A program made the position numbers and the translations under genes. Source: Candidatus Omnitrophota bacterium (lineage in GTDB: Bacteria; Omnitrophota; Gorgyraeia; Gygaellales; Profunditerraquicolaceae). From it: a stretch of 64,000 nucleotides of DNA. Under the pieces are notes generated by a model. That model ran no database searches. It had not been told where the DNA came from and worked only from the letters and a program-made list of their open reading frames with translations. Below, in pieces: positions 1-60,687 of the stretch. The stretch's first letter is position 1; every line of letters begins with the position of its first letter. The stretch is taken from contig JAHKAP010000002.1 of NCBI GenBank assembly GCA_018825985.1, positions 650-64,649 of the forward strand, in the 5' to 3' direction.

Positions 1-3000
1 ATCAGCGATCCTAATAACGCCAATGCCACTGATACCGGCTATGGCAGCTTCCCGATCCGCGGCAACCTTACATTAGACACGCCAGTGGGAAGTGAAAGCT
101 GGAGTGTTGGTTCAGTTCGTCCGGTCAACTGGACTCGTAAAGGTAATATCATAAATGTCAATATATCTTATTCTACGGATGCCGGTTCTACCTACCCGAC
201 AGCCTTAGCTACTAATTATAACGCCTCATTAGGCACCTGGAATTGGTCAATTTCAAATACTACTCCTTTGACTAATCAGGGCCGGATCAAGGTAGCGGAT
301 GCTTCTAACCCGTCGATAGTATTCGCTAATAACACGGTTAATTTTGAAGTTAAAGGAGCGGTAGAATTAATTACACCTTCGGATGCCGGTATATCTATAG
401 CTGTGGGAAATCCCTATAGCGTTAATTGGACTAAAGCCGGAGCAGTAAATGATGTCCAACTGCATTTTTCACCTGACGGCGGCATTGCCGGAAACGGTAC
501 TTATTCGGATTCGGATTTGATCGGAAATTTCTCAGCTACAAATTATACTAAATCCTGGACAGTACCAGATAGGATCGGCAGCACTTTAAGGATACGGGTA
601 AGGGACTTGAATAATACCGGGGTTTGGGATGAATCTAATAATACATTCCAGATCAGGGGTAAGGTATTTGTGGTAGTTCCTAACGGTGATGAAATCTGGT
701 ATAAAGGGGATACCCAGCAGATCCAGTGGATCCCGACCGGGACTTATTCTCAGGTTAAATTGGAGTATTCTACTAACGCTTTTGTCAATGAGACCTTGAC
801 TTATTTGATTGCTAATGTGTCAGCCGGTTCAAGCGGCGCGGTTACCTCTTACAACTGGACTGTCCCGGATAATATCGGTTCTGACCTTATAGTAAGGGTA
901 ACTGATAGAAATAACGCCATGGTTACGGACGTTTCAAATAATACCTTTAATATAAAAGGAAGACTGCATCTAACATCTCCTAACGGAGGAGAGAACTGGA
1001 TAGTTAATTCTACCCAGCCTATTTACTGGCAGCGCACCGGTTCGATCGCTAACGTAAAGTTAGAGTATTCAACTGATTCTGGTGACAGCTATGCTTTTGT
1101 AATCACTAATTCTACTCCGGCCGCCAGCGGAGAATACAACTGGACTGTTCCGGATTCAATAGGGACTAATAAGATCAAAGTAAAAGTTACTGATGCGTCT
1201 GATGCTACGGTTAATGATGATTCTAACGCCACCTTTACCATAAAAGGCGCTTTGCATTTGAGTATCCCTAATGGAGGCGAAAGTTGGGGAGTAGGGACCA
1301 AGTATAATATTACCTGGGAGCGCACCGGTTCGATCGCTAATGTAACTTTGGAATATTCTACTGACGGCGGCGGAAACTATACTAACAGCATTAACGCGAC
1401 TTCCGGAGCAGCAGGTATTTATGAATGGACTATTCCGGATAACCCCGGCTCACAGATCAAAGTCAGGATTAAAGATACGTCTGATGCTTCGGTCAATGAT
1501 CCTTCAGATACTAATTTCAAGATAGTCGGTTTCCTGACATTGACCGCGCCTGACGGAGGAGAGAAGTGGGTGATCAATACCACCCGCCAGATAAACTGGA
1601 CCATGACCGGTTCGATCGCTAACGTAAAATTAGAATATTCGACCGATGGTTCGTCTTATGATAAATTGATCAATTCTTCAGTGCCCGGAGGCAGCTCGCC
1701 ATATTACTGGTTGATACCGGATACTGCAAGCACTACGGCATTGATAAAAGTAACTGATGCTTCAGAATCCAGCGTTTATGATACTTCCAATAATACTTTT
1801 AAACTTCAGGTTAAGTTTAATCTTACTCAGCCTAAGGGCGGAGAGGTCTGGGTAGTTAATGATACCCAATATATTAACTGGACTACTATCGGCACAGCCG
1901 GAACAGTTAATTTGACCTATTCAACCGATAGCGGGTCTAATTTTAACTATAGTATAGCCAATGATGTGCCTAATACGGGATCTTATTCCTGGATAGTGCC
2001 GAATAATATTTACCAGACCTTAAGGCTTAAGGTAGCTGATTCTCAGGATGCAGAAGCGTTTAACGCTTCTACCAGTAATTTTAAGATCAAAGGCGCTGTC
2101 TCTTTAAGCTCACCTGATGGCAACGAGATCTGGATAGTTAATACTACTCATAATATTACCTGGGGCATTACCGGAAGCGTTCAAACAGTAAGGTTGGATT
2201 ATTCCAATGACGCGGGCAGCGATAATTATGAGCATCCTATTACCAGCAACATAACCGCGCCTTTAGGTAATTATAGCTGGCTGGTGCCGGATAATATCGG
2301 AAATTATACCCGGGTAAAGATTACCGATACCTCTGATTCTACTGTTTTTGATAATTCAACCGGTAATTTCTCGATCAAAGGCGCGCTGGACTTAACTGCT
2401 CCTGATGGCGGAGAAAACTGGATAGTCAATGAGACTCAGCGGATCAATTGGACCCGGACCGGAAATATCCCTAATGTTAGAATCGAATATTCCAAGAATT
2501 CCGGCGGAACATATCCGTTTGCAGTCGTTAATTCAACTGACGCCTCAACAGGATATTATAATTGGTTTATCCCGGATGAGCTCTCAACCGGAGTGAGGAT
2601 TAAGATATCTGACGCGTTAGATCCGGCGGTATATGATAATTCTACGGCTGATTTTATAATTGCCGGTAAATTTACCCTAACCTATCCTACCGGCGGCCAG
2701 ATCCTTTATGTAGGAGAGGGTAAGAATATCACCTGGACCAGGGATGGCTCTATTACTAATGCTAAATTACAATATTCCCGGGACGGAGGGTTAAATTACA
2801 ATTATACCATTACTAACGCTACTGATGCGTCTTTAGGATATTCTAGCTGGGTTATTCCCGATGCTATCGGCGATAAAGTCAAAGTGAAAATCAGCGATCC
2901 CGCTAATACCAATGTCAATGATACCTCAGCGAATAATTTTACAATTAAGGGAAGGCTGAATATTACCGCGCCTGTAGGAGAAGAGACCTATATCGTGGAT

Positions 3001-6000
3001 AACGCTCATCCTATAACTTGGTCTCAGTCAGGCTCGATCGCCACCGTTTCGTTAAGTTATTCTACTGATGGCGGCGGGACCTACCCGTTTAGCATTACCA
3101 ATTCCACGGTCAGTAATGGTTCTTATAGCTGGACTGTCCCGAATATTATAGGTAATAAAATAAAGGTCAGGGTTATAGATACTGCGGATTCCAGCGTTTC
3201 CGGAGATTCAGCGGATAACTTTACAGTTAAAGGATCCATACATGTAACTGCGCCTAACGGCGGAGCCGGACAGATGCTTCAGGTAGGAACAGACTATCCT
3301 ATCAACTGGACCAAGACCGGGACAATATCCACGGTTAATATTACCTATTCTACCGACGCAGGGACGACTTATCCTTATACTATCATTGGTTCAACTGACG
3401 CCGCCGCCGGCACATACACCTGGACTAATATTCCCGATACCATATTTGGAACCTGTAAGGTTAAAATAACCAATAATGCCGATTCTTCGGTAAATGATAC
3501 TTCTGATTTTAATTTTAAGATCGCCGGCGTAGTTAATTTAACTCAGCCTGATGGTGGTGAGCGCTGGACAGTAAATGGCACCCAGGATATTAAATGGAAT
3601 ATAACCGGTTCCATGGCTAATGTAAGTTTAGGTTATTCGGTTGACGGCGGAGGTAATTATACTACCATAGTTGGCGCAACTCCTGCCGGATCTAAGAGTT
3701 TGGCTTGGCAAATACCGAATGCCGTATCCAAGTCAGCTAAGGTAAGGATCGCTGACGCCAGTGACAGCGATGTATTTGACGTATCTTCAAATAATTTTAC
3801 TATCCAGGCAGGGTTTAATATGACTTCACCCGGCGGCGGAGAGATCTGGGTAGTAAATTCTACGCATGATATTAACTGGACTACTATCGGGTCAGTCTCG
3901 ACGGTAAAATTAGCTTATTCTACGGACGGCGGCTCAAATTATAATTACACTATTACTAATTCCACCACTAATACCGGCTCATACCCCTGGTTTGTGCCTA
4001 ATAATATCTCTACTACTATGAGGCTTAGGGTCAGCGATTACAATGATCCTTTGGCATACGGTAATTCCACCAGTAATTTTAAGATCCGCGGAGATATTTA
4101 TGTCATTACTCCGAATAATAATGAATCCTGGATTGTCAATAATACCTATAATATTACCTGGGGCATTACCGGTTCCATATCCGCGGTTAACCTTAAATAT
4201 TCATTGGATGGCGGCTCAAATTATAATTATACCATTGCCAGTAATGTCAGCGCTTCTATCGGGAATTACAGCTGGACCATACCGAACAATATTACAGCCG
4301 CGGCCAGGGTAAAGATAATTGACGGAACCGACTCCTCGGTTTATGATGAATCAGACGCTAATTTTAAAATCCGCGGAAGCCTGACCCTTTTGGCTCCTAA
4401 TGGCGGGGATGTTCTAAACGTAGGGGATACTTATAATATTACCTGGAGCAAAGTAGGTTCGATTGAAAATGTAAATTTGAGCTATTCTACTGATAACGGG
4501 CTCACCTATCCAAATTATCTGGCTACGCTGGATGCAACAGGCGGGATGTACCCCTGGGCAGTAAATGATTCTATCAGCAGGAATATCCGGGTTAAAGTAT
4601 CGGATTCATCGGATCCGATAGTCAATGATACCTCGGATTCCAACGTTACTATCCGGGGTGTATTAAGGATTATCTCTCCTAACGGCAATGAGCGTTGGGA
4701 TGTGCTATCCCATCATAATATAACCTGGAATACCACTGGTTCGATCTCTACGGTAAACATAACTTATTCTACCGACGGAGGGGCTAGTTATAACCGTACA
4801 ATTATCAGTTCAATTGCAGCGGTCCCATCGGTTTACGACTGGGAAGTGCCGGATACCATCTCTTCCTTAGTAAAAGTCAAGGTTTCTAATTTAGCGGACG
4901 GCAATGTATTTGATGTTTCGGATGACAATGCCAATATAGTCGGCAAACTTACTTTATCCTCGCCGGACGGAGGAGAAGTCTGGGCAGTAGGTTCTTCCCA
5001 GACCATCAGTTGGACCAAGGTCGGATCATTCAGTAATATTACTTTATCCTATTCAGCTAACGGCGGGATTGATTATAATTATACAATTAACAATGGGAAT
5101 AATGTTTCCGCGGGCGGCGGTTCAGGTTCATACAGCTGGGATGTGCCGGATGTAGTTTCTACTACTTTGAAGGTAAAAGTAGCGAATGCGGCAGATCCGG
5201 TTGTTAACGACACCTCTAATGCTACATTTAAGATCAGGGGCGACCTTGACCTGACTCGTCCTGATGCCCCGGATTTGGTATTCCTGATCGGCTCCACCGA
5301 GAATATTAACTGGGTCAGGCATGGCTCCATAGCCAACGCTAAACTAAGATATTCAACCGATGGAGGCGCAACTTATCCCTATTGTATTACTAATTCGGTC
5401 AATGCTTCTAATGAAACCTTGCAGTGGTCAGTCCCGGACAGGCCTACTCTTCAAGGCAGGGTTAATATTTCCGATGCGGCAGATTCTACGGTGTTTGATA
5501 CCTCTACCAATAACTTTATAATCCGCGGCGGTTTTGTGGTTAATAGCCCTAATGGAGGGGAAGCCTGGGCGGTAAATTCAACCCATGATATTAACTGGAC
5601 CACTTATGGCTCGATTTCTTATGTCCGGCTGGATTATTCTACTAATAACGGGACCGGCTGGACACTGATAACTACAAATACGTCAAATATTAATCGTTAC
5701 AGTTGGACTATTCCCGATGCCATATCCACAAATTGCAGGGTCAAGGTATCGGACGTCAATGACCCGGATGCCTACGATTTCTCAAATACTTCATTTAAGA
5801 TACATGGAATTTTAGGGGTGAGCGTTCCTAACGGCGGCGAGCAGTGGCAGGTAGGTTCTTATAAGGCGGTTAACTGGACCAGGACCGGCTCGATCGGTAA
5901 CGTGAGGATAGAATATTCCACTAATGGCTTTGCCAATGAAACCCTAACGGTGAAGATCACCAATAATACTCCTTCGTCAGCCTTGACTTATAACTGGACA

Positions 6001-9000
6001 GTCCCGTCTATAATCTCCGATTCTATTAAAATCAGGGTCAGCGATGACGTTGATACCTTGGTGAATGATACTTCCGACGGGCCGTTTAAGATAAAAGCAA
6101 GTTTTACTCTCAGCTCGCCAAACGGAGCCGAGGAATGGATCGTGGCGAGTGCCCATAATATTACCTGGACTACGCTTGGCCCGGCGACAAATATTAAACT
6201 TTCTTTCTCATCTAATAGCGGGAGCAGCTGGAGCAATATAACCGCCGGAGGCGTAAATAATACCGGGAGTTTCTTATGGACAATACCTAATATCATCTCC
6301 ACTAACTGTACAGTAAAGGTGGAGGATTCAACAGATAGCGATGCTGCTGATGTATCGGATGGTAACTTTAAGATCCGGGGTGATTTAAGAATAACCGCTC
6401 CCAACGGCGGGGAAAAATTAATCGTAAATACCAGTGATTATCAGATCACCTGGAATATCACCGGCTCAATATCTACTGTAGGATTGCAGTATTCTATCAA
6501 CAACGGCACTTCGTATCTGCCTATTACAACTTCTGCCCCTAACTTTGGCTATTATACCTGGCTGATCCCGAATGTTAAGACTACTCTCGGATTGGTAAAG
6601 ATATATAACACTGAAGATCCAGGTGTGTTGGATGTATCGGATGCGGTATTTAAGATCCAGGGCAGCTTTGCCCTGAATACGCCTAACGGAGGCGAGAGCT
6701 GGCCGGTAGCAACTGTACGTCCGATAAACTGGACCTGGACCGGGCCGATCAATTATGTAAAATTAGAATACTCTAAAGACGGCGGCAATAATTATAATAA
6801 TACGATTATCGCTTCCGTTAACAACACCGGTAATTATAACTGGACTATTCCCGATGATGTATGCACTACCCTAAGATTAATGATCTCTGATGTGAGCGAC
6901 GCTGAGGCTAAGGCTAATTCCGAAGGAAACTTTACTATTAAGGCGGTATTTAATATCAGCGCTCCCAACGGCGGCGAGAATTGGCTGGTCGGGGATTTAA
7001 ATAATATCCTTTGGAATGTTACCGGGACTATTCCTTATGTGCGCCTGATGTATACCCGGAATAATTTCATTAATTCATATAATATATCGACGGAGAATTT
7101 AGGCGGGTTTACCAATGTTACCTCTAACTCTTTTATTTATAACTGGACTGTTCCTGATACGATATCCTCCGGTGCGCAGCTGCGTATCCTTGATCCGGCA
7201 AATACGGATAATTATCTGGATTCAGCGGCTAACTTCAGTATTAAGTCCAGGTTCAATGTGACTTCGCCGGTTGCCGGAGATAAGTGGGATGTAGATAGTG
7301 TCCAGCAGATCAGATGGACCTGGACCGGCTCAGTGCCGGAAGTCCGCCTGCAGTATTCTATTAACGGAGGCACAAGCTATAGCGATCTTGACGACGGGAT
7401 TTATAACACTACAATAAATCCGGGTTATTATAACTGGACCGTACCGGATAATATAACCGCTTCTTTGAAGGTTAAAGTCGCGGATCTGGCTGATTCAACG
7501 GCCAATGACACTTCTGACGGTAATGCTAAGATCCGGGCCAAATTTACTTTATTTACTCCTAATGGCGGACAGGACCTGACTGTAAATGACACCTATAATA
7601 TTACCTGGGAGTCTGTAGGCACGGTTTCTTTTGTCAACCTTACTTATTCGCTAAATAATTATACCAGCTATTCTACTATTATTACTTCAACGCCTAATGA
7701 CGGCTGTTTTACCTGGACAGTGCCTGACGCTATATCAAACAATGTTACGGTGAGGGTAAGAAGCACTTCTGATATTGACGCTTACAATGATTCCAATACC
7801 GCGTTCAGGATCAAGGGTTCATTGAATGTGACTTCTCCTAACGGGAATGAACAATGGAAGATCAACCAGAAATATAATGTGACCTGGGATACTATCGGGA
7901 CAATTCCTGTGGTAAAGATATTGTATTCTACTAACGGCGGAAATAATTTTAACGGGACCATCATATCCGGGACAGCTAATACCGGAATTTATGAATGGAC
8001 GATTCCCGATATACCTACTACCGGCGGAAAAGTGAGGGTTATCGATTATAATGATTCTGCGGTTTATGATGATTCTAACGCTAATTTCAGCATCCAGGGT
8101 AATGTGATATTGGATTCACCGCTGGGTAATGAGATCTGGATAGTGGGAAGTAAATATAATATTACCTGGACCTGGGGCGGGACAATACCGGCTATATATA
8201 TCGCCTATTCCAATAATAGCGGGGCTAATTATGCGGTTGTTAATGCAGCTGCTCCTAATGGAGCAGGCAGTAGCGGCACCCATACTTATGAATGGACTAT
8301 TCCCGATGACATTACAACTCATGCCAGGGTCAGGATACAGGATGCCAACGATACTAATGTTAATTCAACTTCCGCCAGCGATTTCTATATCAGGGGGAAC
8401 CTGACCATTACTTCGCCTAACGGCGGAGAATATTGGGTAGCCCGCAGCAGTGTGCCGATTACCTGGGGCACGGTGGGCACTATACCGAACGTAAAATTGC
8501 AGTATTCTAAGGATAATGTCAATTATACTACTATAACCAATGCCGCTAATATCAGTAATCAGGATTCATTCACTTGGGCTATACCTAATGATCCGTCCGC
8601 TACAGTGAAGATAAAGATAAGTGATACCCGGGATGCCAATGTTACCGACACCTCGGATACTAATTTTACGATAGGTTACTATAATGTTACCTGGAATCTC
8701 AAGGATCTTTTAACCGGGCAGGACCTATCTCAACTGACAGTAAACGCAGTCTCCAACCAGGGAGACGAATGGAAGAATTCCACTATGCCTGATAATCCCA
8801 ACGCCACCCTGGGTTCGCCGGTCAGTAAAGATATGCCTTTTGGTTTCTGGACAGCAACCTGGACCAAGACCGGCTATAGCGATATCCAGACTAGTTTCTT
8901 GGCCAGCAGTAATATGACCGTGCCGACCTTGTTTATGGAAACTTCAGCTATCCATATCTGGAGGGCATATTCGGAATTTAGTTATGATTCGTATTTGGAC

Positions 9001-11154
9001 AAACTTGCTGTTAGTTCCTGGCTGGAAAGGGATGGTTTTGTGGTTACCGGAGGAACACAATGTGATATTTATATTTATTATGCCGGTGAACTGATACAAC
9101 ATTTAACTGATCTTAGTATAGATGACGCTGGTTTCTTCCAGATGTTCTGGGAAAATACCAATACCTTAATAGCCGGAAGGGTATACACTGTAGTAACTAT
9201 AATTAAAAACGCCAGCGGCGCAGAATTCCGGACTCCTACGTCTTTTAGCGTAACTTCGTCTGCTATGTTGCAGCAGACCGTGGATACCGTGGAACGGATG
9301 AGTAACGTTACTTTCCCGGAATTTATTAACCTGACTAATACCACGATTGTTACTCAGATGCAGCAGCAGGCGATATTGATTGGCGGTTATATGACCAATC
9401 AGACTGATATAATCAATGCCAGCATGACTAATATGACCGGCCTTATCAATACCAGCATGGAGAAACAGATTAATCTAATCGTCGGCGATAGAAGCGCTGA
9501 CGATATTATCTCGGGAGGCGGTATGGTGGGTATGCTGCAGTCTTCCTTAAGTAGCTTTGAAACTAATGCTACGGTAGTTATCGGAAGGCTACAGTCCGGC
9601 GCAGATGCTGCGGTTGGCGCCGGCCAGAATCTGACCGCTACAGCTCAAAGATATTCCTGGAACGCGATCTGCGCGCCTAATCCATCGCTGGCCGGGGATA
9701 ATGTAACCATCAGCGTACAGGGCCCGGATTTTTATGTGGATCCGGTAACCAGCTTAGTATCCACGGTTCAACCCATGCTGACTATTTATAGCTGGGATAA
9801 TAAAGCGGTCGTTGAAAATATAGCTGTTCTTAAAACCCAGCCCGGCCTTTACAGTTATACATTCCAGGTAGATAATACGCGCTTCCAGCCGGGCAAGGCC
9901 TATACTTATATAGTCAGCGAGTCGCAGACCGGAGGCCTGGTTTCCGGTTCAGGCATGGTAGAGTCGATGAGCGTTACTTCTATCGCCGGCCTTGCTTCAG
10001 CGGCTCCGGAAGCGGAACGCGCGGCCAAAGCGGCTTTGGAGGGTATCAGGGCTTTGCAAACAATGCTCGGCGCCGGAGGTAATGACGCGACAAATATCAT
10101 GCTTACGCTGCAGAATTTAAAAGAGGCGTTGGATAAGTTGCCGGAACAGATGGCTGAAGATAAACAAGGATTTAAGGCCCTGACTAGTGATCTTGAGGAT
10201 ATGGCTAGCCGTCTGCAGAAAGTTATCGGCGATGAAGGCTACGGTGACCTTGGCAAACTGCTTGAAGAGAAACTTGCGGATTCTCCGACTATGAAGGCTA
10301 TCCGCAGCAAGACCGATTCTATTAAGACAATTATCGAACTTTTACAGATGTTATTTGAGGCTAAGTTAGGTGGAATGGATTCACCGGTTGTTTCAACTTC
10401 TCTTGCTCCGGGCAGCGTTAAGTTCAGGATAGCCGCGGTTAACCCATCGGCAACCAAGACCCAGCGGGTGATGATTAAAACATATCTGCCGCTGGAGGTA
10501 AAAATTAAGGATATTTTAGATAACGCTGGTTTAGACGTCGGATATGATTCCGGGAAATCAATGTATTATGTTTACCGGGATAGTCTTGAACTTGCCCCTA
10601 AAGAGGCCCGGGTTTTCGAAGTAGAGGTAGAGGATATCTGGTTTGTTCCCAAGAAAGTATTGGACCAGCTTAAGGAGCAGACTGCAAAATTAGCTCTCCG
10701 TTTGGAGAAGTCTAAATATGCCCAGGAATCCCGCTCAACCGCCAATACTATTAACCTGGCCCTGGAAGAAATTGCCAAGACTCAGGCCGATGAGTCAGTG
10801 AGCAGGGATCAGCATATCGGCTCGTACAGGCAGAATTTAGAGACCCTGAAAAAGATTAAAGAGGAGATTGTGCGGTTAGAGAAACTTCTCCAGCCTCAGG
10901 AAGGTACGAATGTTCCGGAGATACTCGAGAAGTCTAAATTTAAATTCAATCTGCCTAATAAAACTACTACCTGGCTGATTATCATGGTTATCATAAGCTT
11001 TATGGGGATGTTGGCCGGAGTATTCTTCTTTATTTGGCAGGGACAGATAAAATCCAGCCAGGAAGTTTTAGATTCTGCGCGCAAAGCCGCTTTCCCCGAC
11101 CAAAAAACAGAAAACAAACCCACGCCTCCGCCGCCCGCCGATAAGAAAACTTAA
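1..11154 (+). CDS. Giant repeat-rich surface protein, 5'-truncated by the window edge. About 30 tandem Ig-like/Kre9-KNH-like beta-sandwich repeats of roughly 92 aa, then a non-repeat region, a coiled coil and a C-terminal transmembrane tail anchor.
   Basis: The reading frame is open from nt 1; the track ORF begins only at an internal GTG at 85. The unit L(T/S)xPNGGExWxVG...I(N/T)W...GSIxxVxLxYSxDGGxxYxxxI......GxYxWxVPDxI....xKVxD......DxSxxxFxI(K/R)G recurs about 30 times. A hydrophobic helix WLIIMVIISFMGMLAGVFFFIW lies about 35 aa from the C-terminus, followed by a Pro/Lys tail. Stop is at 11152-11154. Confidence 0.85.
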   Translation: MSDPNNANATDTGYGSFPIRGNLTLDTPVGSESWSVGSVRPVNWTRKGNIINVNISYSTDAGSTYPTALATNYNASLGTWNWSISNTTPLTNQGRIKVADASNPSIVFANNTVNFEVKGAVELITPSDAGISIAVGNPYSVNWTKAGAVNDVQLHFSPDGGIAGNGTYSDSDLIGNFSATNYTKSWTVPDRIGSTLRIRVRDLNNTGVWDESNNTFQIRGKVFVVVPNGDEIWYKGDTQQIQWIPTGTYSQVKLEYSTNAFVNETLTYLIANVSAGSSGAVTSYNWTVPDNIGSDLIVRVTDRNNAMVTDVSNNTFNIKGRLHLTSPNGGENWIVNSTQPIYWQRTGSIANVKLEYSTDSGDSYAFVITNSTPAASGEYNWTVPDSIGTNKIKVKVTDASDATVNDDSNATFTIKGALHLSIPNGGESWGVGTKYNITWERTGSIANVTLEYSTDGGGNYTNSINATSGAAGIYEWTIPDNPGSQIKVRIKDTSDASVNDPSDTNFKIVGFLTLTAPDGGEKWVINTTRQINWTMTGSIANVKLEYSTDGSSYDKLINSSVPGGSSPYYWLIPDTASTTALIKVTDASESSVYDTSNNTFKLQVKFNLTQPKGGEVWVVNDTQYINWTTIGTAGTVNLTYSTDSGSNFNYSIANDVPNTGSYSWIVPNNIYQTLRLKVADSQDAEAFNASTSNFKIKGAVSLSSPDGNEIWIVNTTHNITWGITGSVQTVRLDYSNDAGSDNYEHPITSNITAPLGNYSWLVPDNIGNYTRVKITDTSDSTVFDNSTGNFSIKGALDLTAPDGGENWIVNETQRINWTRTGNIPNVRIEYSKNSGGTYPFAVVNSTDASTGYYNWFIPDELSTGVRIKISDALDPAVYDNSTADFIIAGKFTLTYPTGGQILYVGEGKNITWTRDGSITNAKLQYSRDGGLNYNYTITNATDASLGYSSWVIPDAIGDKVKVKISDPANTNVNDTSANNFTIKGRLNITAPVGEETYIVDNAHPITWSQSGSIATVSLSYSTDGGGTYPFSITNSTVSNGSYSWTVPNIIGNKIKVRVIDTADSSVSGDSADNFTVKGSIHVTAPNGGAGQMLQVGTDYPINWTKTGTISTVNITYSTDAGTTYPYTIIGSTDAAAGTYTWTNIPDTIFGTCKVKITNNADSSVNDTSDFNFKIAGVVNLTQPDGGERWTVNGTQDIKWNITGSMANVSLGYSVDGGGNYTTIVGATPAGSKSLAWQIPNAVSKSAKVRIADASDSDVFDVSSNNFTIQAGFNMTSPGGGEIWVVNSTHDINWTTIGSVSTVKLAYSTDGGSNYNYTITNSTTNTGSYPWFVPNNISTTMRLRVSDYNDPLAYGNSTSNFKIRGDIYVITPNNNESWIVNNTYNITWGITGSISAVNLKYSLDGGSNYNYTIASNVSASIGNYSWTIPNNITAAARVKIIDGTDSSVYDESDANFKIRGSLTLLAPNGGDVLNVGDTYNITWSKVGSIENVNLSYSTDNGLTYPNYLATLDATGGMYPWAVNDSISRNIRVKVSDSSDPIVNDTSDSNVTIRGVLRIISPNGNERWDVLSHHNITWNTTGSISTVNITYSTDGGASYNRTIISSIAAVPSVYDWEVPDTISSLVKVKVSNLADGNVFDVSDDNANIVGKLTLSSPDGGEVWAVGSSQTISWTKVGSFSNITLSYSANGGIDYNYTINNGNNVSAGGGSGSYSWDVPDVVSTTLKVKVANAADPVVNDTSNATFKIRGDLDLTRPDAPDLVFLIGSTENINWVRHGSIANAKLRYSTDGGATYPYCITNSVNASNETLQWSVPDRPTLQGRVNISDAADSTVFDTSTNNFIIRGGFVVNSPNGGEAWAVNSTHDINWTTYGSISYVRLDYSTNNGTGWTLITTNTSNINRYSWTIPDAISTNCRVKVSDVNDPDAYDFSNTSFKIHGILGVSVPNGGEQWQVGSYKAVNWTRTGSIGNVRIEYSTNGFANETLTVKITNNTPSSALTYNWTVPSIISDSIKIRVSDDVDTLVNDTSDGPFKIKASFTLSSPNGAEEWIVASAHNITWTTLGPATNIKLSFSSNSGSSWSNITAGGVNNTGSFLWTIPNIISTNCTVKVEDSTDSDAADVSDGNFKIRGDLRITAPNGGEKLIVNTSDYQITWNITGSISTVGLQYSINNGTSYLPITTSAPNFGYYTWLIPNVKTTLGLVKIYNTEDPGVLDVSDAVFKIQGSFALNTPNGGESWPVATVRPINWTWTGPINYVKLEYSKDGGNNYNNTIIASVNNTGNYNWTIPDDVCTTLRLMISDVSDAEAKANSEGNFTIKAVFNISAPNGGENWLVGDLNNILWNVTGTIPYVRLMYTRNNFINSYNISTENLGGFTNVTSNSFIYNWTVPDTISSGAQLRILDPANTDNYLDSAANFSIKSRFNVTSPVAGDKWDVDSVQQIRWTWTGSVPEVRLQYSINGGTSYSDLDDGIYNTTINPGYYNWTVPDNITASLKVKVADLADSTANDTSDGNAKIRAKFTLFTPNGGQDLTVNDTYNITWESVGTVSFVNLTYSLNNYTSYSTIITSTPNDGCFTWTVPDAISNNVTVRVRSTSDIDAYNDSNTAFRIKGSLNVTSPNGNEQWKINQKYNVTWDTIGTIPVVKILYSTNGGNNFNGTIISGTANTGIYEWTIPDIPTTGGKVRVIDYNDSAVYDDSNANFSIQGNVILDSPLGNEIWIVGSKYNITWTWGGTIPAIYIAYSNNSGANYAVVNAAAPNGAGSSGTHTYEWTIPDDITTHARVRIQDANDTNVNSTSASDFYIRGNLTITSPNGGEYWVARSSVPITWGTVGTIPNVKLQYSKDNVNYTTITNAANISNQDSFTWAIPNDPSATVKIKISDTRDANVTDTSDTNFTIGYYNVTWNLKDLLTGQDLSQLTVNAVSNQGDEWKNSTMPDNPNATLGSPVSKDMPFGFWTATWTKTGYSDIQTSFLASSNMTVPTLFMETSAIHIWRAYSEFSYDSYLDKLAVSSWLERDGFVVTGGTQCDIYIYYAGELIQHLTDLSIDDAGFFQMFWENTNTLIAGRVYTVVTIIKNASGAEFRTPTSFSVTSSAMLQQTVDTVERMSNVTFPEFINLTNTTIVTQMQQQAILIGGYMTNQTDIINASMTNMTGLINTSMEKQINLIVGDRSADDIISGGGMVGMLQSSLSSFETNATVVIGRLQSGADAAVGAGQNLTATAQRYSWNAICAPNPSLAGDNVTISVQGPDFYVDPVTSLVSTVQPMLTIYSWDNKAVVENIAVLKTQPGLYSYTFQVDNTRFQPGKAYTYIVSESQTGGLVSGSGMVESMSVTSIAGLASAAPEAERAAKAALEGIRALQTMLGAGGNDATNIMLTLQNLKEALDKLPEQMAEDKQGFKALTSDLEDMASRLQKVIGDEGYGDLGKLLEEKLADSPTMKAIRSKTDSIKTIIELLQMLFEAKLGGMDSPVVSTSLAPGSVKFRIAAVNPSATKTQRVMIKTYLPLEVKIKDILDNAGLDVGYDSGKSMYYVYRDSLELAPKEARVFEVEVEDIWFVPKKVLDQLKEQTAKLALRLEKSKYAQESRSTANTINLALEEIAKTQADESVSRDQHIGSYRQNLETLKKIKEEIVRLEKLLQPQEGTNVPEILEKSKFKFNLPNKTTTWLIIMVIISFMGMLAGVFFFIWQGQIKSSQEVLDSARKAAFPDQKTENKPTPPPPADKKT

Positions 11155-11158
11155 GCAG

Positions 11159-11282
11159 AAATGGGGTCAGAATTATTTTTTCACAAAAGAATGGGGTCAG
11201 AATTATTTTTTTTCCTTATTTTGTTTTATAAAAAAATAATTCTGACCCCATTTCTAAAAAAATAATTCTGACCCCATTTTTT
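11159..11282. repeat. Composite palindrome: two direct copies of AATGGGGTCAGAATTATTTTTT followed by two inverted copies. Likely a bidirectional terminator or REP-like element. The same 22-mer pair recurs at 60627-60687.
   Basis: Direct copies at about 11160-11181 and 11190-11212; inverted copies AAAAAATAATTCTGACCCCATTT at about 11231-11253 and 11257-11279. Read directly from the sequence. Confidence 0.8.
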
Positions 11283-11317
11283 AAATACCATAAATTAATG
11301 GACTTAGGGATAGAAAA

Positions 11318-11326
11318 TGATATAAT
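11318..11326 (+). promoter_or_regulatory. Candidate extended -10 promoter (TGaTATAAT) for the atp/gsp cluster
   Basis: TG at 11318-19 and TATAAT at 11321-26, 37 nt upstream of the atpC-like start. An AAGG ribosome-binding site lies about 9 nt before the ATG at 11364. No good -35 hexamer. Confidence 0.35.
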
Positions 11327-11363: not shown

Positions 11364-11591
11364 ATGTTTGATGTATTAATCGTAACTACAGAAAAGGTTC
11401 TATTCGAGAATAAGGTAAAGAGCCTGGTTTTGCCCGGGGAACACGGGGTATTCGAAATATTAGATTACCATAAGCCGGTAATGGCCAGGCTTATGGGAGG
11501 CAATATCTTCGCCGGTGTAAACGTATTTAAGATCTGCCGGGGCATAGTTGGTTTTAGTAAAAATAAAGCAACGGTTATCGTCGAACAGTAA
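11364..11591 (+). CDS. atpC: F-type ATPase epsilon subunit, truncated form of 75 aa with the beta-sandwich domain only
   Basis: FDVLIVTTEKVLFENKVKSLVLPGEHGVFEILDYHKPVMARLMGG aligns with the E. coli epsilon N-terminal domain ([41 protein letters not shown]). The C-terminal helical hairpin is absent. Confidence 0.7.
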   Translation: MFDVLIVTTEKVLFENKVKSLVLPGEHGVFEILDYHKPVMARLMGGNIFAGVNVFKICRGIVGFSKNKATVIVEQ

Positions 11592-11603
11592 TTAGGCTAA
11601 GCG

Positions 11604-11680
11604 CAGGGACGGTTCTCATGCCAAAGCTAAAGTGTCCCCGAAAAGGGGACACTTTTAGAACAAATTGAGAACCGTCCCTG
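11604..11680. repeat. Nested palindrome, GGGACGGTTCT family copy A. Outer stem CAGGGACGGTTCTCA/TGAGAACCGTCCCTG; inner hairpin GTGTCCCCgaaaaGGGGACAC.
   Basis: Inverted repeats read directly. Sits between the atpC-like and atpE-like genes. Related copies at 25764-25806 and 37736-37812. Confidence 0.85.
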
Positions 11681-11711
11681 AATTGACTGACGGCAGGCAG
11701 GATGAGGGATC

Positions 11712-11924
11712 ATGGATAAGAACCTATCATTACTATTGATTTTTACCTCTTGTATTATAGGTCCGTGCTGGGTTTTTGCCGCTTGCGCGAAATCCAGCAT
11801 CAATGCTCTTGGACGTAACCCGTCCAGCGCACCCAAGGTTTTTATCGCAATGATCATTACCTTGATTTTCGCTCAGGCAGCGGCCTTGATCGCGATGCTT
11901 ATTGCGTTCCAATTATTCAGTTAA
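11712..11924 (+). CDS. atpE: F-type ATPase c-subunit-like proteolipid, 70 aa and two helices, with Gln at the position of the conserved ion-binding carboxylate
   Basis: Two hydrophobic helices joined by an ALGRNPSSAPK loop (compare ARQPE/ARNPE). The residue 20 positions after the loop Arg is Q (codon cag) where E/D is conserved. Helix 2 contains no acidic residue. A GAGGG ribosome-binding site lies upstream. Confidence 0.65.
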   Translation: MDKNLSLLLIFTSCIIGPCWVFAACAKSSINALGRNPSSAPKVFIAMIITLIFAQAAALIAMLIAFQLFS

Positions 11925-11939
11925 TTAAAGGGGTGATAT

Positions 11940-12668
11940 ATGCTAATTGTGTCTTTAGTAATTTTTCAGATAATAATCTTCATCACCTTGACTGTTGTAT
12001 TGCGTAAGCTGCTCGGACGCAATGTAACCAGCGCTACGGCCCATTTGGATTATTTGTCAGCGGAATTCGCCAGGAAAGAGAAAGAAGTCAAAGCCCAGTA
12101 TGATGAGGCTAAAAGACAGAGCCAGGAGATCCTGGCAAATGCTTTAAAAGACGCCGATTCTCAGAGGGAGAATATATTAAAAGAGGTTCAAAAGGAAAAA
12201 GAGAGAATAATTTCTGAGTCTCAAAATAAGGCTGATGAAATAGTAAAACAGGCGGATAAGGCCAGAGAGAATCTTTTGGCTGATATCAACCATCAGATAC
12301 AGAGTAAATCGCTCCAACAGGCTGTTAACCTGCTTCAATTATCTTTGCCGGAAAATATCAGGGTAGAAATCCACCGGCATTGGGTGGATGATCTAATCAA
12401 TAATACTTTTGAACAGTTAAGTAATATTCATATACCAGAGGGGACAACCGAGGCTAAGATAGTTACCCCTTTTGCGCTTACTCCAAAGCAGCGGGAAGCC
12501 TTAAATTCTAAGATCAAGGAAAAGCTGGGTTTTAATCTGGATCTTAAAGAAGAGATCGAGATGGGAGTAATCGCCGGATTAGTCGTTCATATCGGCAGTT
12601 TAGAATTAGATGGTAGTTTAAGATCTAAAATCCTGGAGGCGGGGCATGCCCAGCAAGCCAATGAATAA
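11940..12668 (+). CDS. atpF: F-type ATPase b-delta fusion: N-terminal TM helix and coiled coil (b), C-terminal OSCP/delta-like domain
   Basis: N-terminal TM helix LIVSLVIFQIIIFITLTVVL, then a charged coiled coil. The C-terminus LTPKQREALNSKIKEKLGFNLDLKEEIEMGVIAGLVVHIGSLELDGSLRSKILE resembles the delta C-terminus (..VDPSLIGG..V..GD.V.DGS....L). Confidence 0.6.
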   Translation: MLIVSLVIFQIIIFITLTVVLRKLLGRNVTSATAHLDYLSAEFARKEKEVKAQYDEAKRQSQEILANALKDADSQRENILKEVQKEKERIISESQNKADEIVKQADKARENLLADINHQIQSKSLQQAVNLLQLSLPENIRVEIHRHWVDDLINNTFEQLSNIHIPEGTTEAKIVTPFALTPKQREALNSKIKEKLGFNLDLKEEIEMGVIAGLVVHIGSLELDGSLRSKILEAGHAQQANE

Positions 12669-14139
12669 CGGCAGTAACGGCGACGCCCTCGTTAAATTTG
12701 ATGTCCGGGAGGCCGGAACTATTAAATCGGTCCGGGAGTGTATTATTCGGGTTAAAGGCCTTCCTTCTTGTATTAACGGCCAGATGATCGAATGCAGCCA
12801 GGGCGGGCAAGGAATGGTTTTAGGATTTAATGAAGAAGAAGCCCATATAATGGTTTTTAAGAGTAATGCCCCGCTACGCGCCGGAGATGAAGTATATAGC
12901 AAGGGCCAATTCCTGAATTTGCCGGTTGGTGAAAAATTTTTAGGCCGGGTAATTGATCCTCTTTGCGAACCGGTGGATAATTTAGGGCCAATCGAGCCGG
13001 ACGCGTTTTTTCCGGTATTCCGCGAGGCCCCTTCAGTTATGGACCGGGTTCCGGTCAAAGAGACATTAGAAACCGGGACCTTGCTTTTGGATGCGATTAT
13101 CCCAATTGCTAAAGGACAGAGGCAGCTTTTGATCGGCGACCGGCTTACCGGGAAGACTACAGTCGGGCTGGATGCTATCCTTAATCAGAAAGAAAGAGAA
13201 GTTATCTGTATTTATTGCAGTATTGGAAAGACATATTCGAGTTTAGTTAAAGTTCTCAATCTTTTTAAGGAAAAAGACGTAATGCCTTATACTATAGTGG
13301 TCAGCGGAGTGGCAGCGATCTCAATGGGTGAACAATACCTGGCTCCTTATACCGCGGTAACCTTAGGTGAATATTTTATGCAAAAAGGCAAGGATGTTTT
13401 TGTGGTTTTTGACGATCTCACCAAGCATGCCTGGATCTACCGGCAGATATCGCTTCTGATGGACCGGGCTCCGGGAAGAGAAGCTTATCCGGGAGATATA
13501 TTTTATATCCATTCTCAGATGATGGAAAGAGCCGGATATTTAAAACCGGAGTTAGGCGGTGGTTCAATGACTTTTTTTCCTATCGTGGATATTTTGCAGG
13601 GGGATGTTACCGGGTATGTCTCCAGTAACCTTATTTCAATGACTGATGGCCAGATCTATTTCTCAAGCGCGCTTTTTAATAAAGGAGTTAAACCGGCTAT
13701 AGACTTTGGGCTTTCAGTATCCCGTATCGGAAACAAGGCCCAATGGCCGGCAATGAAAGCGTTAAGCGGCAGGCTCAGGCTTGAGTATATCCAGTATCAG
13801 GAACTTTTACAGATGACCCAATTAAGGACTACGGGATTATCCAAAGAGGCAGAGGAGAGGATGAAGAGGGGGCAGGCAATGACCAATATCCTGATCCAGG
13901 CGAAGAATAACCCTATCAGTATGGAAACGGAAATAATCTTTTTGTTCGCTTTAAGCATCGGCGTATTGGATAATTTATCTGTAGCGGATGTCAATAAATT
14001 CAGGGTTGATTTTCCTAAACAGGCCCAGGAGTGGTTCCCGGAACTTTACGTTAACCTACGCCAAAGCCAGATCATGGATGATTCGGTGATCGCCCAACTG
14101 TATGAGGGATTGGGCAGGTATTTCCAGTCAACCGCCTAG
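12646..14139 (+). CDS. atpA: F1 ATPase alpha subunit
   Basis: Walker A GDRLTGKTTVGLDAILNQ. Conserved blocks QYLAPYTAVTLGEYF, DDLTKHAWIYRQISLLMDRAPGREAYPGDIFYIHS. Confidence 0.9.
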   Translation: MPSKPMNNGSNGDALVKFDVREAGTIKSVRECIIRVKGLPSCINGQMIECSQGGQGMVLGFNEEEAHIMVFKSNAPLRAGDEVYSKGQFLNLPVGEKFLGRVIDPLCEPVDNLGPIEPDAFFPVFREAPSVMDRVPVKETLETGTLLLDAIIPIAKGQRQLLIGDRLTGKTTVGLDAILNQKEREVICIYCSIGKTYSSLVKVLNLFKEKDVMPYTIVVSGVAAISMGEQYLAPYTAVTLGEYFMQKGKDVFVVFDDLTKHAWIYRQISLLMDRAPGREAYPGDIFYIHSQMMERAGYLKPELGGGSMTFFPIVDILQGDVTGYVSSNLISMTDGQIYFSSALFNKGVKPAIDFGLSVSRIGNKAQWPAMKALSGRLRLEYIQYQELLQMTQLRTTGLSKEAEERMKRGQAMTNILIQAKNNPISMETEIIFLFALSIGVLDNLSVADVNKFRVDFPKQAQEWFPELYVNLRQSQIMDDSVIAQLYEGLGRYFQSTA

Positions 14140-14163
14140 ATAAAATGGAAAATAAATATAGAG

Positions 14164-14243
14164 CACGGATTCTCACGGATTTTTATGCGGATTTACACAG
14201 ATTCATCCGTGTGCGTCCGTTATTTTATCCGTGTATATCCGCG
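14164..14243. repeat. Iteron-like array: CACGGAT-type direct heptamers followed by their inverted copies (ATCCGTG) at about 10-11 bp spacing
   Basis: CACGGAT, CACGGAT, GCGGAT, then ATCCGTG, (G)TCCGT, ATCCGTG, ATCCGCG. Between atpA and atpG. A homologous array lies at 37165-37247. Confidence 0.8.
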
Positions 14244-14269
14244 CCTAAGGCATTATTTATTATAGAAGA

Positions 14270-15121
14270 ATGAGATTACTTGCCCAGATAAAAAAGGACC
14301 TCGATTTTAATAATAATCTCTATAACCTGGTTGAGGTATTAAAGGAAATCTCTATATCCCAATACCGGATCATGGAGAAGAAGATCAAGTCATTTGATAA
14401 GGTTTTTAACGCGCTGGAGAGCCTTTTTGAGATGTTTGACCCGGAAAGCTCTAATCATCCGCTTATCAATACCGGCAACCGGCAGCCGGGAGTGATAGCT
14501 ATAACTTCAGATTCCGGGCTTTTGGGCGGTTTGAATATGCAGGTTATGAATTCAGCGGTTAAAGAAGCAGTTTCCTCCAGGGCTACATTGATAATAATCG
14601 GAGAAAAAGGTAAGGTTTTTGCTAAGGATAGCGGTTTACCTACAGTTAATTTTAAAGGGATCAAGGATGAAACCAGGTATGAGCAGGCCGTGGAGTTAAG
14701 GGATTTTATTGTCAAGGAGGAATTAGCCGGAAGGCTGGGCGCGTTAGAGATGATTTATCCGTATTCAATATCCTTATTTTCCCAACAGGTCCAGGTGATC
14801 AAGCTTTTGCCTTTTTCTAAGGCGGATAATATCCGGGTGAAAAATGAGGGGAGCTTTTATCCGGATATAATTTATGAATCTCCGATCGATGATGTCGTAG
14901 GTTACCTGATCTATCTTTTATTATCCCGTAAGTTTTATGAAACATTCGGCCTGGCCCGCCTGGCTGAGATGTCCGCGCGGTATATTCATTTGGAAAATTC
15001 CAAGACTAAGATTGAGCAGTTAAACAAAGAACTAAAAATGCAGTATTTCCGCACGCGCCATGAACTTATTGACCGGAATATCCGCGAGCTGTTTGCCTCG
15101 CGCTTAGCAGTCCATAATTAA
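14270..15121 (+). CDS. atpG: F1 ATPase gamma subunit (divergent)
   Basis: 283 aa, positioned between alpha and beta. Predicted N- and C-terminal helices (C-terminus LNKELKMQYFRTRHELIDRNIRELFASRLA). Similarity to gamma is weak but consistent. Confidence 0.55.
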   Translation: MRLLAQIKKDLDFNNNLYNLVEVLKEISISQYRIMEKKIKSFDKVFNALESLFEMFDPESSNHPLINTGNRQPGVIAITSDSGLLGGLNMQVMNSAVKEAVSSRATLIIIGEKGKVFAKDSGLPTVNFKGIKDETRYEQAVELRDFIVKEELAGRLGALEMIYPYSISLFSQQVQVIKLLPFSKADNIRVKNEGSFYPDIIYESPIDDVVGYLIYLLLSRKFYETFGLARLAEMSARYIHLENSKTKIEQLNKELKMQYFRTRHELIDRNIRELFASRLAVHN

Positions 15122-15123
15122 TT

Positions 15124-20367: not shown

Positions 20368-20422
20368 TATGGAAAATATAAAGAGGGTATTTATTACTGA
20401 TAACGGTAAAGAGGCTTAAGTA

Positions 20423-21292: not shown

Positions 21293-21312
21293 CTAAGCAA
21301 GGGAGGTATTTT

Positions 21313-22096: not shown

Positions 22097-22151
22097 CCGT
22101 CCCGCACCTTCTAAAAAATTAAATGATTTTAAAACAAATGGTTTTAGTATT

Positions 22152-22730: not shown

Positions 22731-22732
22731 GA

Positions 22733-60626: not shown

Positions 60627-60687
60627 AATGGGGTCAGAATTATTTTTTTATTCTATGTAATCGTAAAAAATAATTCTGACCCCATTT
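60627..60687. terminator. Hairpin from one direct plus one inverted copy of the AATGGGGTCAGAATTATTTTTT 22-mer (same family as 11159-11282). Likely bidirectional terminator or REP-like.
   Basis: AATGGGGTCAGAATTATTTTTT (60627-48), a 16-nt loop, then AAAAAATAATTCTGACCCCATTT (60665-87). Starts 3 nt after the pilT stop. Confidence 0.7.

Follow-up and report, generated by a model that had tools for sequence, protein, structure and literature searches.

The first 11,154 nucleotides (nt) of a 64,000-nt stretch of DNA from a Candidatus Omnitrophota bacterium (GenBank assembly GCA_018825985.1, contig JAHKAP010000002.1, positions 650 to 64,649 of the forward strand; the whole stretch is referred to below as the window) were found to encode part of a giant protein, and this visible part can be described with high confidence as an inner-membrane-anchored string of immunoglobulin (Ig)-like domains. 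In the complete protein the string is likely to be preceded by a Sec-exported N-terminal part with a distal head, as judged from the relatives of the protein, and we lean towards the reading that the resulting fibre is an adhesin or a spacer reaching other cells. This last reading draws on the analogy with giant repeat adhesins, on the lectin-like heads of distant family members, on the lifestyle proposed for the phylum and on the genomic setting.

Tandem Ig-Like Repeats Make up the Visible Rod

Frame 1 of the window is open from nt 1 to a TAA stop codon at nt 11152–11154 and comprises 3,717 codons, the last of which is the sole stop. In the list of open reading frames (ORFs) the gene starts at the first in-frame GTG (nt 85), which gives 3,689 amino acids (aa), the frame being already open before that position. 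A first-pass annotation, made from the sequence alone, had described a giant, 5′-truncated protein larger than 3,689 aa; the open frame and the greater length of the full-length relatives are in agreement with this description, but the visible part turned out to be only about half of the protein.

Using a hidden Markov model (HMM) built from the protein itself, 30 complete repeats (aa 25–2892, nt 73–8676) and one cut repeat were located, as expected from the earlier estimate of about 30 tandem β-sandwich units. The repeats are 90–98 aa long (about 94) and are separated by spacers of 3 aa (4 aa in one case), and single repeats score with E-values of 1e-26 to 1e-40 against the HMM. Their consensus, ..LT.PNGGE.W.V.....I.W..TGSI..V.L.YStD.G..Y...I........G.Y.WTvPD.I.....VKV.D..D..V.D.S..NF.I.G, agrees with the one written at first pass. 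An AlphaFold2 model of two repeats was all-β, with a predicted local distance difference test (pLDDT) score of 95.3, and its Foldseek matches in the PDB were FN3, Ig and macroglobulin domains (E down to 2.4e-8); on this modelling the repeats are predicted to be Ig/FN3-like β-sandwiches.

The guess that the units belong to the Kre9/KNH family stands in part. Kre9_KNH (Pfam PF10342, gathering score 24.6 bits) was the only Pfam family that recurred, being matched by 20 of the 30 repeats when these were scanned singly (E ≤ 0.1, best 1.5e-6), with the next family matching 7 of 30 at most, but multi-repeat segments of the window scored 13.5 and 17.7 bits, under the gathering score. The N-terminal repeats of one relative (P0031) pass this score at 33.7 bits. 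On such a weak but consistent signal the repeats look like distant Kre9/KNH-like members, and this is the best available family label. A PDB sequence search with the repeat profile gave a best E-value of 0.63, taken as noise, and an NCBIfam scan of a two-repeat segment showed no significant match.

Pairwise identity between the repeats averages 38% at the amino acid level and 50% at the nucleotide level (maxima 63% and 67%, respectively), and adjacent repeats are not more similar to each other than distant ones. Tandem Repeats Finder detected no array with the repeat period at the nucleotide level. The repeats are old and diverged and not recent copies; this divergence, together with the lack of a nucleotide-level array, also makes assembly collapse unlikely for the visible part.

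The C-Terminal Module Ends in a Membrane Anchor

The final 826 aa of the giant protein are non-repeat and showed no significant match in Pfam or in NCBIfam. The hydrophobic segment at aa 3658–3679 is the only Kyte–Doolittle window above 1.6 in the whole visible protein, and it is followed by a Lys/Pro-rich tail of 38 aa, QGQIKSSQEVLDSARKAAFPDQKTENKPTPPPPADKKT; the single C-terminal hydrophobic helix with a short Pro/Lys-rich tail had been recognized correctly from the start. The rest of the module had been taken for a non-repeat domain plus a long coiled coil, and this picture had to be replaced. In an AlphaFold2 model made with 30 homologues as input (overall pLDDT 72.8; modelled as a monomer, with helical parts at pLDDT of about 50–80), the module is predicted to consist of four β-sandwich domains (A to D), with two long helical segments between them and a third one before the transmembrane (TM) helix (Table 1). 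Domains A and B are kept in the 30 homologues, and domain C carries the best-conserved sequence of the family (GKAYTY...GSGMVES). The second helical segment ends with ...KLGG, which is where the giant gene stops in species of the split type described below.

The giant ORF of about 15 species does not extend past module residue ~575–605 (loci L036, L038, L046, L050–L056, L058, L059, L061, L065 and L066; L070 and L071 are also listed as split). Nine split loci were inspected by tblastn; in five of them the break lies at residue ~573–577 (...GG(I/M)DxPVV), and in all nine the last ~240 aa were found in a separate frame downstream, after gaps of about 100–550 nt. The giant chain in split-type species ends with ...GGIDxPVVHVxY. 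Two separate anchor ORFs were read, coding for 283 and 308 aa; each of them shares about 30 nt with the end of the giant gene and each carries its own signal peptide. These comparisons show that the last ~250 aa are a unit of gene fusion or fission, present as a separate gene, and hence as an independent subunit, in about 15 species. The anchor would therefore be a separable stalk onto which the fibre is either fused or docked.

Since the separate anchors have their own signal peptides, the β domain and the stalk should face outward and the tail the cytoplasm. The giant protein is a type I (stop-transfer) membrane protein, whose single TM helix is C-terminal and followed by a short tail. The term "tail-anchored", which the first-pass annotation had applied to it, does not hold in the strict sense, as such a protein is ruled out by the signal peptides on both the full-length relatives (cleavable Sec signal peptides) and the separate anchors. 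A motif directly after the TM helix, S.E.L..A(K/R)..AFP (nt 11038–11100), recurs in most of the aligned anchors and suggests a cytoplasmic binding partner.

Relatives Supply the N-Terminal Half

Homologues of the C-terminal module comprised 30 protein matches and 62 genomic loci, the latter obtained by scanning one genome per species, and almost all are labelled Candidatus Omnitrophota/Omnitrophica. In nearly all 62 loci the ORF was still open at the 10-kb flank limit, so that the proteins exceed 4,100–4,280 aa. Full-length members came from an exhaustive HMMER search of 1.84 billion representative proteins: P0031 (6,457 aa), P0033 (6,941 aa), P0035 (6,203 aa), P0036 (5,594 aa) and P0039 (6,910 aa), with 42–58 repeats each. 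All five start with a typical Sec signal peptide, as exemplified by ...VLLGVVLLDATSAHA followed by VQIKKVQ.

In one further relative the two ends of the gene lie on one 676-kb contig, L080 containing the head and L010 the tail, with the anchor fused. The C-terminal module of L010 is 49% identical to that of the window, which places it among the closer relatives. The distance from start to stop is 24,579 nt, in frame, and corresponds to 8,192 aa, of which 7,806 were read as an open frame, with 65 repeats in that part (about 69 is the upper end for the relatives), and the N-terminus is a signal peptide, MITKITRSKVFFGIVFLLAAACFGIFFSPPDASA followed by VQIKRVQ. The head behind the signal peptide measures about 380–420 aa and matches no Pfam family; a more distant branch has a larger head (~1,190 aa) with four lectin-like Laminin_G_3 domains. 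Apparent N-termini in L018, L022, L023, L050 and L068 were discarded as N-runs or in-frame stops within the repeats: these ORFs lead into or begin in repeats, none has a signal peptide, and those of L018 and L068 hold runs of X after 2 and 16 aa, respectively. By comparison with the full-length members, the window would contain roughly the membrane-proximal half of a protein of ~6,000–8,000 aa.

Sequon Enrichment in the Repeats

The repeat region contains 149 N-x-S/T sequons, as compared with 68.0 ± 6.7 in residue shuffles (2.2-fold, z = 12.1). N-x-T predominates over N-x-S (117 versus 32), and the reversed control [ST]-x-N occurs 74 times, which is near chance. Every repeat has 3–7 sequons, distributed over about 15 repeat positions, and only 13 of them have the D/E at position −2 that is required by Campylobacter PglB. 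Among 44 homologues the ratio of observed to expected sequons was 0.7–1.5 in 38 and 2.7–3.0 in L026, L032, L035, L043 and L064. L026, L032 and L035 cluster with L024 and L033 in a single clade when a tree is drawn from the C-terminal module, the window being on a separate branch. The directional asymmetry and the restriction to certain lineages suggest that N-glycosylation sites have been selected for in at least two lineages.

The giant protein is probably heavily N-glycosylated in the lineage of the window, and this lineage and one other clade may possess a bacterial general N-glycosylation system acting on plain N-x-T sequons. The oligosaccharyltransferase motif WWDYG was absent from six-frame translations of the window and of the loci through L072, although the gene need not be nearby, and nothing relevant on N-glycosylation in Omnitrophota was found in the literature. 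Upstream of the giant gene in L080 (nt 1–9894), in a species without sequon enrichment, a glycan-synthesis cluster was observed with genes for a radical SAM/SPASM protein, a GT4 glycosyltransferase, WbqC, a PIG-L deacetylase and a WecA-like Glycos_transf_4 protein, followed by a Y1_Tnp-like gene and a gene for a 155-aa secreted protein.

The Anchor Resembles SlaB in Design

The best PDB fold match of the C-terminal module, as determined with Foldseek, was chain 8qox_B (SlaB), with an E-value of 2.2e-8 over 353 columns and 17% identity. SlaB, the N-glycosylated membrane stalk of the Sulfolobus acidocaldarius S-layer, is made up of a signal peptide, three β-sandwich domains, a helix of 132 aa assembling into a trimeric coiled coil and, at residues 448–470 of 475, a TM helix (PMC10903991). 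The Omnitrophota anchor has the same kind of plan, with a signal peptide (on the separate anchors), one or more β-sandwich domains, a long helical stalk and a C-terminal TM helix. As with SlaB, in some lineages the anchor protein is distinct from the large outer component, and the giant protein is rich in N-x-S/T sequons. It differs in that sequence similarity is not detectable, that the host is a bacterium whose relatives carry secretin genes, and that the outer component is a linear array of 40–70 domains and not a compact lattice protein as in the SlaA/SlaB layer.

Genes Flanking the Giant Gene

The giant gene was said at first pass to sit next to a pseudopilus/secretion cluster; the gene order is indeed conserved, but a six-gene F-type ATPase operon lies between the two. 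In the window this operon encodes an epsilon N-domain protein of 75 aa (atpC), c, a b/delta fusion, alpha, gamma and beta, and it is followed by a cluster resembling a type II secretion system (T2SS) with the order MshEN protein, GspE, GspF, peptidase MA, GspG, pseudopilin(s), GspJ, GspK, PilM–PilN fusion and GspM. GspG passes its NCBIfam equivalog cut-off (143.5 versus 88.85 bits) and GspE falls just under its own (588.7 versus 630.25 bits); GspF, GspJ, GspK, the PilM–PilN fusion and GspM were identified by Pfam.

As far as the downstream sequence of each locus extends, the relatives keep the order giant gene (plus separate anchor), ATPase operon, MshEN, GspE, GspF, peptidase MA and GspG. Together with the ATPase operon and the T2SS-like genes, the giant gene makes up a block that is conserved phylum-wide. 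The atpC gene comes next after the giant gene or anchor in 60 of the 62 loci, the remaining two being without downstream sequence, and GspE and GspF are encoded downstream in 46 of the 47 loci that have at least 7 kb of it. The signature of the ATPase a subunit (R-x-F-G-N...) was absent from six-frame translations of the 64-kb window and the loci through L072, a weak negative. Of the 22 loci whose upstream sequence reaches 6.7 kb or more, 9 encode a secretin and a TPR protein before the giant gene; no secretin was found in the 64-kb window. In the distant member L072 the secretin and TPR genes are directly upstream and there is no ATPase downstream. Most of the relatives searched encode upstream a Y1_Tnp-like (IS200/RAYT-like) protein of about 400–450 aa, and about half of them a small secreted protein of about 155–165 aa.

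A perfect double hairpin with about 49 bp, formed by two direct and two inverted copies of the 20-mer ATGGGGTCAGAATTATTTTT and followed by a T-run, looks like the terminator of the giant gene. The same 20-mer recurs as an inverted pair at nt 60628–60685, after a PilT-like gene, and it looks like a genome-wide element, either of the repetitive extragenic palindromic (REP) kind or a terminator. The gap from the stop codon of the giant gene to atpC is 209 nt in the window; in many species it is 0–30 nt.

Table 1. Features of the window, with nucleotide positions counted from its first letter.
Feature	Module residues	Protein residues	Position (nt)	Strand	Basis or remark
Final 21 aa of an additional repeat truncated at the window edge		1–21	1..63	+	Repeat HMM positions 73–93 match aa 1–21
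30 tandem Ig-like (Kre9/KNH-like) β-sandwich repeats, 3–7 N-x-S/T sequons each			73..8676	+	HMM, AlphaFold2, Foldseek, Pfam
Micro-heterogeneity cluster			313..373	+	All differences from GCA_043820065.1; long short-read contig ends near nt 318
β-Sandwich A (predicted)	1–92	2892–2983	within 8674..9249	+	AlphaFold2, pLDDT 85–92
β-Sandwich B (predicted)	96–192	2987–3083	within 8674..9249	+	AlphaFold2, pLDDT 85–92
First long helical segment (predicted)	196–327	3087–3218	9259..9654	+	AlphaFold2, low confidence, pLDDT ~50–60
β-Sandwich C (predicted)	330–430	3221–3321	9661..9963	+	AlphaFold2
Second helical segment (predicted)	446–565	3337–3456	10009..10368	+	AlphaFold2
Anchor module		3459–3717	10375..11151	+	AlphaFold2, homologue comparison
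β-Sandwich D (predicted)	572–652		10387–10629	+	AlphaFold2
Helical stalk before TM helix (predicted)	660–739		10651–10890	+	AlphaFold2
TM helix	763–806 (model, with juxtamembrane helix)		10972–11037	+	Kyte–Doolittle
Cytoplasmic tail	806–826 (disordered end)		11038–11151	+	After TM helix
Stop codon TAA			11152..11154	+	Frame translation
Double hairpin (~49 bp; two direct and two inverted ATGGGGTCAGAATTATTTTT copies), then T-run			11157..11283	+	Minimum free energy −62.6 kcal/mol, z = −12.6
Sigma-70-like promoter match (TGGACT, 16-nt spacer, TATAAT, TG-extended)			11299..11326	+	Consensus match only
F-type ATPase operon			11364..16512	+
T2SS-like cluster			16517..25754	+	Pfam, NCBIfam

Several further genes of the window were recorded. 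The GspE-like ATPase (716 aa; nt 16517–19148 together with the preceding 162-aa MshEN protein) has an N-terminal MshEN and a C-terminal PilZ domain. Both MshEN and PilZ are known binders of cyclic di-GMP, and because of this the secretion/pilus ATPase is probably under cyclic di-GMP control. A Peptidase_MA_2 protein is encoded at nt 20423–21292 between gspF and gspG, the same place as in many related loci. A PilT-like ATPase of 348 aa (T2SSE family) is encoded at nt 59578–60624, between the genes for the large and small subunits of an aconitase/isopropylmalate isomerase-type enzyme. Beyond the T2SS-like cluster the window contains tRNA-Thr, tRNA-Trp and then a bacterial core region, in which nusG, the genes for L11, L1, L10 and L12, rpoB, rpoC, fusA, tuf, ribosomal protein genes and secY were assigned from ORF size and order only; rpoA and the L17 gene were confirmed by Pfam.

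Proposed Arrangement and Alternative Readings

In the arrangement that we propose, the full protein would begin with a Sec signal peptide, as its relatives do, and a head domain of ~400 aa would form the far end of the fibre. It would continue with a rod of ~40–70 Ig-like (Kre9/KNH-like) β-sandwich domains and the conserved C-terminal module, in which helical segments would lie between four β-sandwich domains; a single stop-transfer TM helix would fix the protein in the cytoplasmic membrane and leave a short conserved tail in the cytoplasm. An outer membrane is presumed since relatives carry secretin genes, and it is plausible that the Sec-exported fibre crosses it via the secretin that some relatives encode upstream, with its C-terminus remaining anchored in the inner membrane. 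Surface exposure, adhesion, glycosylation and coupling to the T2SS or the ATPase are properties that we infer.

Several observations weigh against this arrangement or parts of it. An anchor in the inner membrane puts a rod of about 250 nm (an upper estimate, assuming ~4 nm per domain) in a thin periplasm unless the outer membrane is crossed. The relatives that supply the signal peptide and the head have C-terminal modules only 25–50% identical to that of the window, a ligand-binding domain was not identified in the visible part, and the relevant glycosyltransferase was not found within the window. The TM-scores of the SlaB match are low (0.12 and 0.20), and a search of all PDB sequences with a profile from nine anchors did not match SlaB, the best hit being DsbD at E 0.14, regarded as noise; for these two reasons the similarity is to be taken as one of design. 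It could reflect convergence on a simple design, and SlaB in 8qox was itself modelled with AlphaFold and then fitted to the map (PMC10903991). Co-transcription with the ATPase operon is doubtful here in view of the terminator-like hairpin and the promoter-like site, and the conserved gene order may reflect only a stable core-genome backbone, with rpoBC and ribosomal protein operons just downstream.

The alternative that survives best, although we regard it as unlikely, is a two-component, glycosylated S-layer-like coat, in which the chain of Ig repeats would be the canopy or "veil" and the SlaB-like stalk, fused or separate, would set its distance from the membrane, as SlaA and SlaB do. Three findings are in agreement with a coat: the C-terminal module has SlaB as its best fold match, the fused versus split organization of fibre and anchor mirrors a canopy protein plus an anchor protein, and the sequon enrichment is like that of archaeal S-layer glycoproteins. 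In addition, a cultured relative has been named a "coated coccus", and a giant protein was proposed to form its coat (PMC10066038). However, a linear series of 40–70 near-equivalent Ig-like domains with short spacers is typical of a rod-like adhesin and not of a lattice, the lectin-like Laminin_G_3 heads of distant members fit a reach-and-bind function, most species are without sequon enrichment, and the SlaB similarity is weak by its TM-scores and has no sequence support.

Less probable still is an envelope-internal scaffold, a structural spacer or tether lying between the inner and outer membranes or wrapped around the cell body. It is in keeping with the anchor in the inner membrane and with the fact that an outer-membrane targeting signal was not identified in the protein. 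Nevertheless, a rod of up to ~70 domains far exceeds the width of the periplasm, lectin-like heads are carried by distant relatives, secretin genes adjoin the giant gene in a subset of relatives, and the sequon enrichment suggests a glycan shield, which is commoner on exposed surfaces.

Another possibility, of which we think no better than of the scaffold, combines the fibre, the SlaB-like anchor, an F-type ATPase without an a subunit and the secretin/pseudopilus into one Omnitrophota envelope machine. A tethered, glycan-coated fibre would be pushed through the secretin or moved by the ATPase, and would grab hosts or move along them; such a machine would be a functional analogue of the leg-and-motor system of Mycoplasma mobile, made from T2SS and F-ATPase parts.

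A narrower version, in which the fibre and its anchor are mechanically or energetically coupled to the adjacent F-type ATPase and pseudopilus, or in which the pseudopilus acts as a piston extending the fibre via the secretin, appears slightly weaker even than these two. Its parallel is found in the giant surface "legs" Gli349 and Gli521 of M. mobile, which are driven by an F1-like ATPase. Seymour et al. group the alpha subunit of the Omnitrophota ATPase with the Mycoplasma type 2/3 ATPases and suggest a function in attachment to hosts or motility on them (PMC10066038). The conserved order of the giant gene (plus anchor), the ATPase and GspE/F/G, with gaps of 0–30 nt in many species, the a subunit that was not detected in the window or the fetched loci, and the motif that recurs in the membrane-proximal cytoplasmic tail of most aligned anchors are also consistent with coupling.

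Against this, alpha passes the canonical NCBIfam model for atpA (510.7 versus 484.45 bits) and beta that for atpD (565.6 versus 462.85 bits), and both remain under the cut-offs of the gliding models glide_MMOB1660/1670 (407.3/600 and 404.5/850) and of MSC_0619/0618 (310.5/520 and 393.1/570). The best PDB sequence matches of both subunits are ordinary F1 complexes, the G1 beta of M. mobile scoring far lower, and the operon also encodes a c subunit and a b/delta stalk, like a normal F1Fo. The neighbouring ATPase was rejected as a Mycoplasma-type gliding motor on these model scores and PDB matches. Moreover, the terminator-like hairpin separates the giant gene from the ATPase operon in the genome of the window, and the a subunit may be encoded elsewhere.

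A phage fibre was discarded, as there are no phage genes in the window.

Assembly Support

The gene is present in four Logan assemblies (separate SRA runs) and three NCBI metagenome-assembled genomes. Three independent Logan contigs show zero mismatches to the window over 9,789 nt each, and two shorter contigs, one from Logan and one from NCBI, match it exactly over 7,608 and 1,866 nt, respectively. The near-identical public contig JBDREG010000044.1 (72,996 bp; GCA_043820065.1; locus L069, with the giant gene at contig positions 26–11272) differs at 5 positions in 21,154 nt, all of them within nt 313–373; four of these five differences are non-synonymous. The three longest short-read contigs stop near nt 318, which is 10,837 nt before the stop codon, and three shorter ones end deeper in the giant gene or downstream of it. 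The segment at nt 313–373 may be a hot spot of strain variation or of recombination between repeats, and the assembly is at its least certain upstream of about nt 373.

Exact-protein look-ups for the N-terminus of the gene showed that all public contigs carrying it end within the gene, and the N-terminus is therefore not recoverable from public data for this strain. The upstream extension that had been suggested at first pass fell short of the true N-terminus, since the longest public contig, JBDREG010000044.1, starts only 118 nt before nt 1 of the window. Stops or frameshifts in other sequence data had been named there as signs of a pseudogene; no internal stop occurred in any copy of the giant gene across the assemblies compared.

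That the gene is an artefact (a pseudogene, a collapsed repeat assembly or a chimeric contig) is suggested by the breaks of all short-read assemblies within it and by the variable sites confined to nt 313–373, but can be practically dismissed given the 3,717 codons without an internal stop, the same sequence in several independent assemblies, repeats that at about 50% nucleotide identity are too dissimilar to collapse, and the same architecture in relatives from about 60 species.

Comparison with Known Systems

Two kinds of giant repeat adhesin are the nearest points of comparison for the fibre. Ebh of Staphylococcus aureus, a protein of several thousand residues, has a signal peptide, dozens of tandem repeats of about 100 aa that form a rod, one C-terminal TM helix and a short charged cytoplasmic tail; its repeats are helical (FIVAR/GA), and in its monoderm host a membrane anchor is equivalent to surface display. 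The Omnitrophota protein shares the order signal peptide, repeat rod, TM helix and short tail, but its repeats are Ig-like, and the SlaB-like stalk, the split-anchor variants and the ATPase/T2SS neighbourhood have no counterpart in Ebh.

The RTX-type giant adhesins of Gram-negative bacteria, such as LapA, SiiE and MpIBP, are secreted by type I secretion systems (T1SS) of diderm hosts and use tens of bacterial Ig-like domains of about 100 aa as an extender for binding domains. Their C-terminus carries RTX repeats and a T1SS signal, they are without a Sec signal peptide, and an N-terminal plug holds them in the outer membrane. In the Omnitrophota protein this polarity is reversed, the anchor being C-terminal and in the inner membrane, and the relatives have Sec signal peptides. 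An RTX/T1SS adhesin was rejected, as no RTX family was among the Pfam matches of the C-terminal 817 aa, the NCBIfam scan was empty and a TM helix is present instead.

Giant proteins of Omnitrophota have been described before. The "Archaeovorins" and Dockerin-type proteins measure from >10,000 to 147,000 aa (bioRxiv 10.1101/2023.11.21.568195 and 10.64898/2026.06.07.730766) and are described with TM helices numbering in the tens to hundreds, together with SecA-like, dockerin, TSP3 or multi-enzyme content (West-Roberts et al. 2023; Nielsen and Lui 2026). The phylum, the very long ORF, the T2SS/type IV pilus gene neighbours and the proposed role in contact with host or prey are common to them and to the Ig-repeat family. 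In contrast, the members of the latter have 5,594–8,192 aa, well short of the >30,000 aa that mark the Archaeovorin/Dockerin type, one TM helix, nearly one repeat type and a conserved anchor, and scans of the giant protein matched none of the Pfam families SecA DEAD-like, dockerin and TSP3. The family lies under the 10-kAA cut-off of the 2026 catalogue (10.64898/2026.06.07.730766), and the accessible portions of the Archaeovorin/Dockerin papers contain no mention of it.

"Symbiotic" F-type ATPases co-located with type IVa pilus genes have been reported in every Omnitrophota class and compared with Mycoplasma gliding ATPases, and giant ORFs, defined as >20 kb and treated apart, were proposed as adhesins (Seymour et al. 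2023, PMC10066038). Downstream of the giant gene, the ATPase and pilus/T2SS genes are in line with the type of locus outlined there, but unlike the "Mycoplasma-type" label, alpha and beta of the window score as canonical atpA/atpD and the pilin scores as GspG. A conserved giant Ig-repeat gene 5′ of the ATPase operon is not reported in the accessible part of that study (PMC10066038). Giant Ig-repeat adhesins, Omnitrophota giant ORFs and the ATPase/pilus locus are thus already known. In the literature searched we did not find a conserved family with a polarity reversed with respect to the RTX adhesins, a SlaB-like anchor that is fused in some lineages and split in others, a fixed place at the head of an ATPase/T2SS block, or a lineage-specific sequon enrichment.

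Conclusions

The Omnitrophota are widespread, ultra-small and apparently host-dependent bacteria. About 60 species share the Ig-repeat family with conserved sequence, architecture and genomic position and with a clear topology, whereas the giant proteins of >10,000 aa, on which published work has concentrated, are poorly conserved. The Ig-repeat family also sits inside an ATPase/pilus locus that has already been proposed to mediate symbiosis. The Ig-repeat fibre is a good and tractable candidate for an attachment structure of the Omnitrophota. The fused and split forms of the anchor constitute a natural "Rosetta stone" that links the fibre to a small membrane stalk protein, and bacterial N-glycosylation could be sought in the two lineages in which N-x-T is strongly enriched. 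The family also raises a question of cell biology, namely how a fibre anchored in the inner membrane, and put as longer than the cell itself, would be displayed by a bacterium with secretins.

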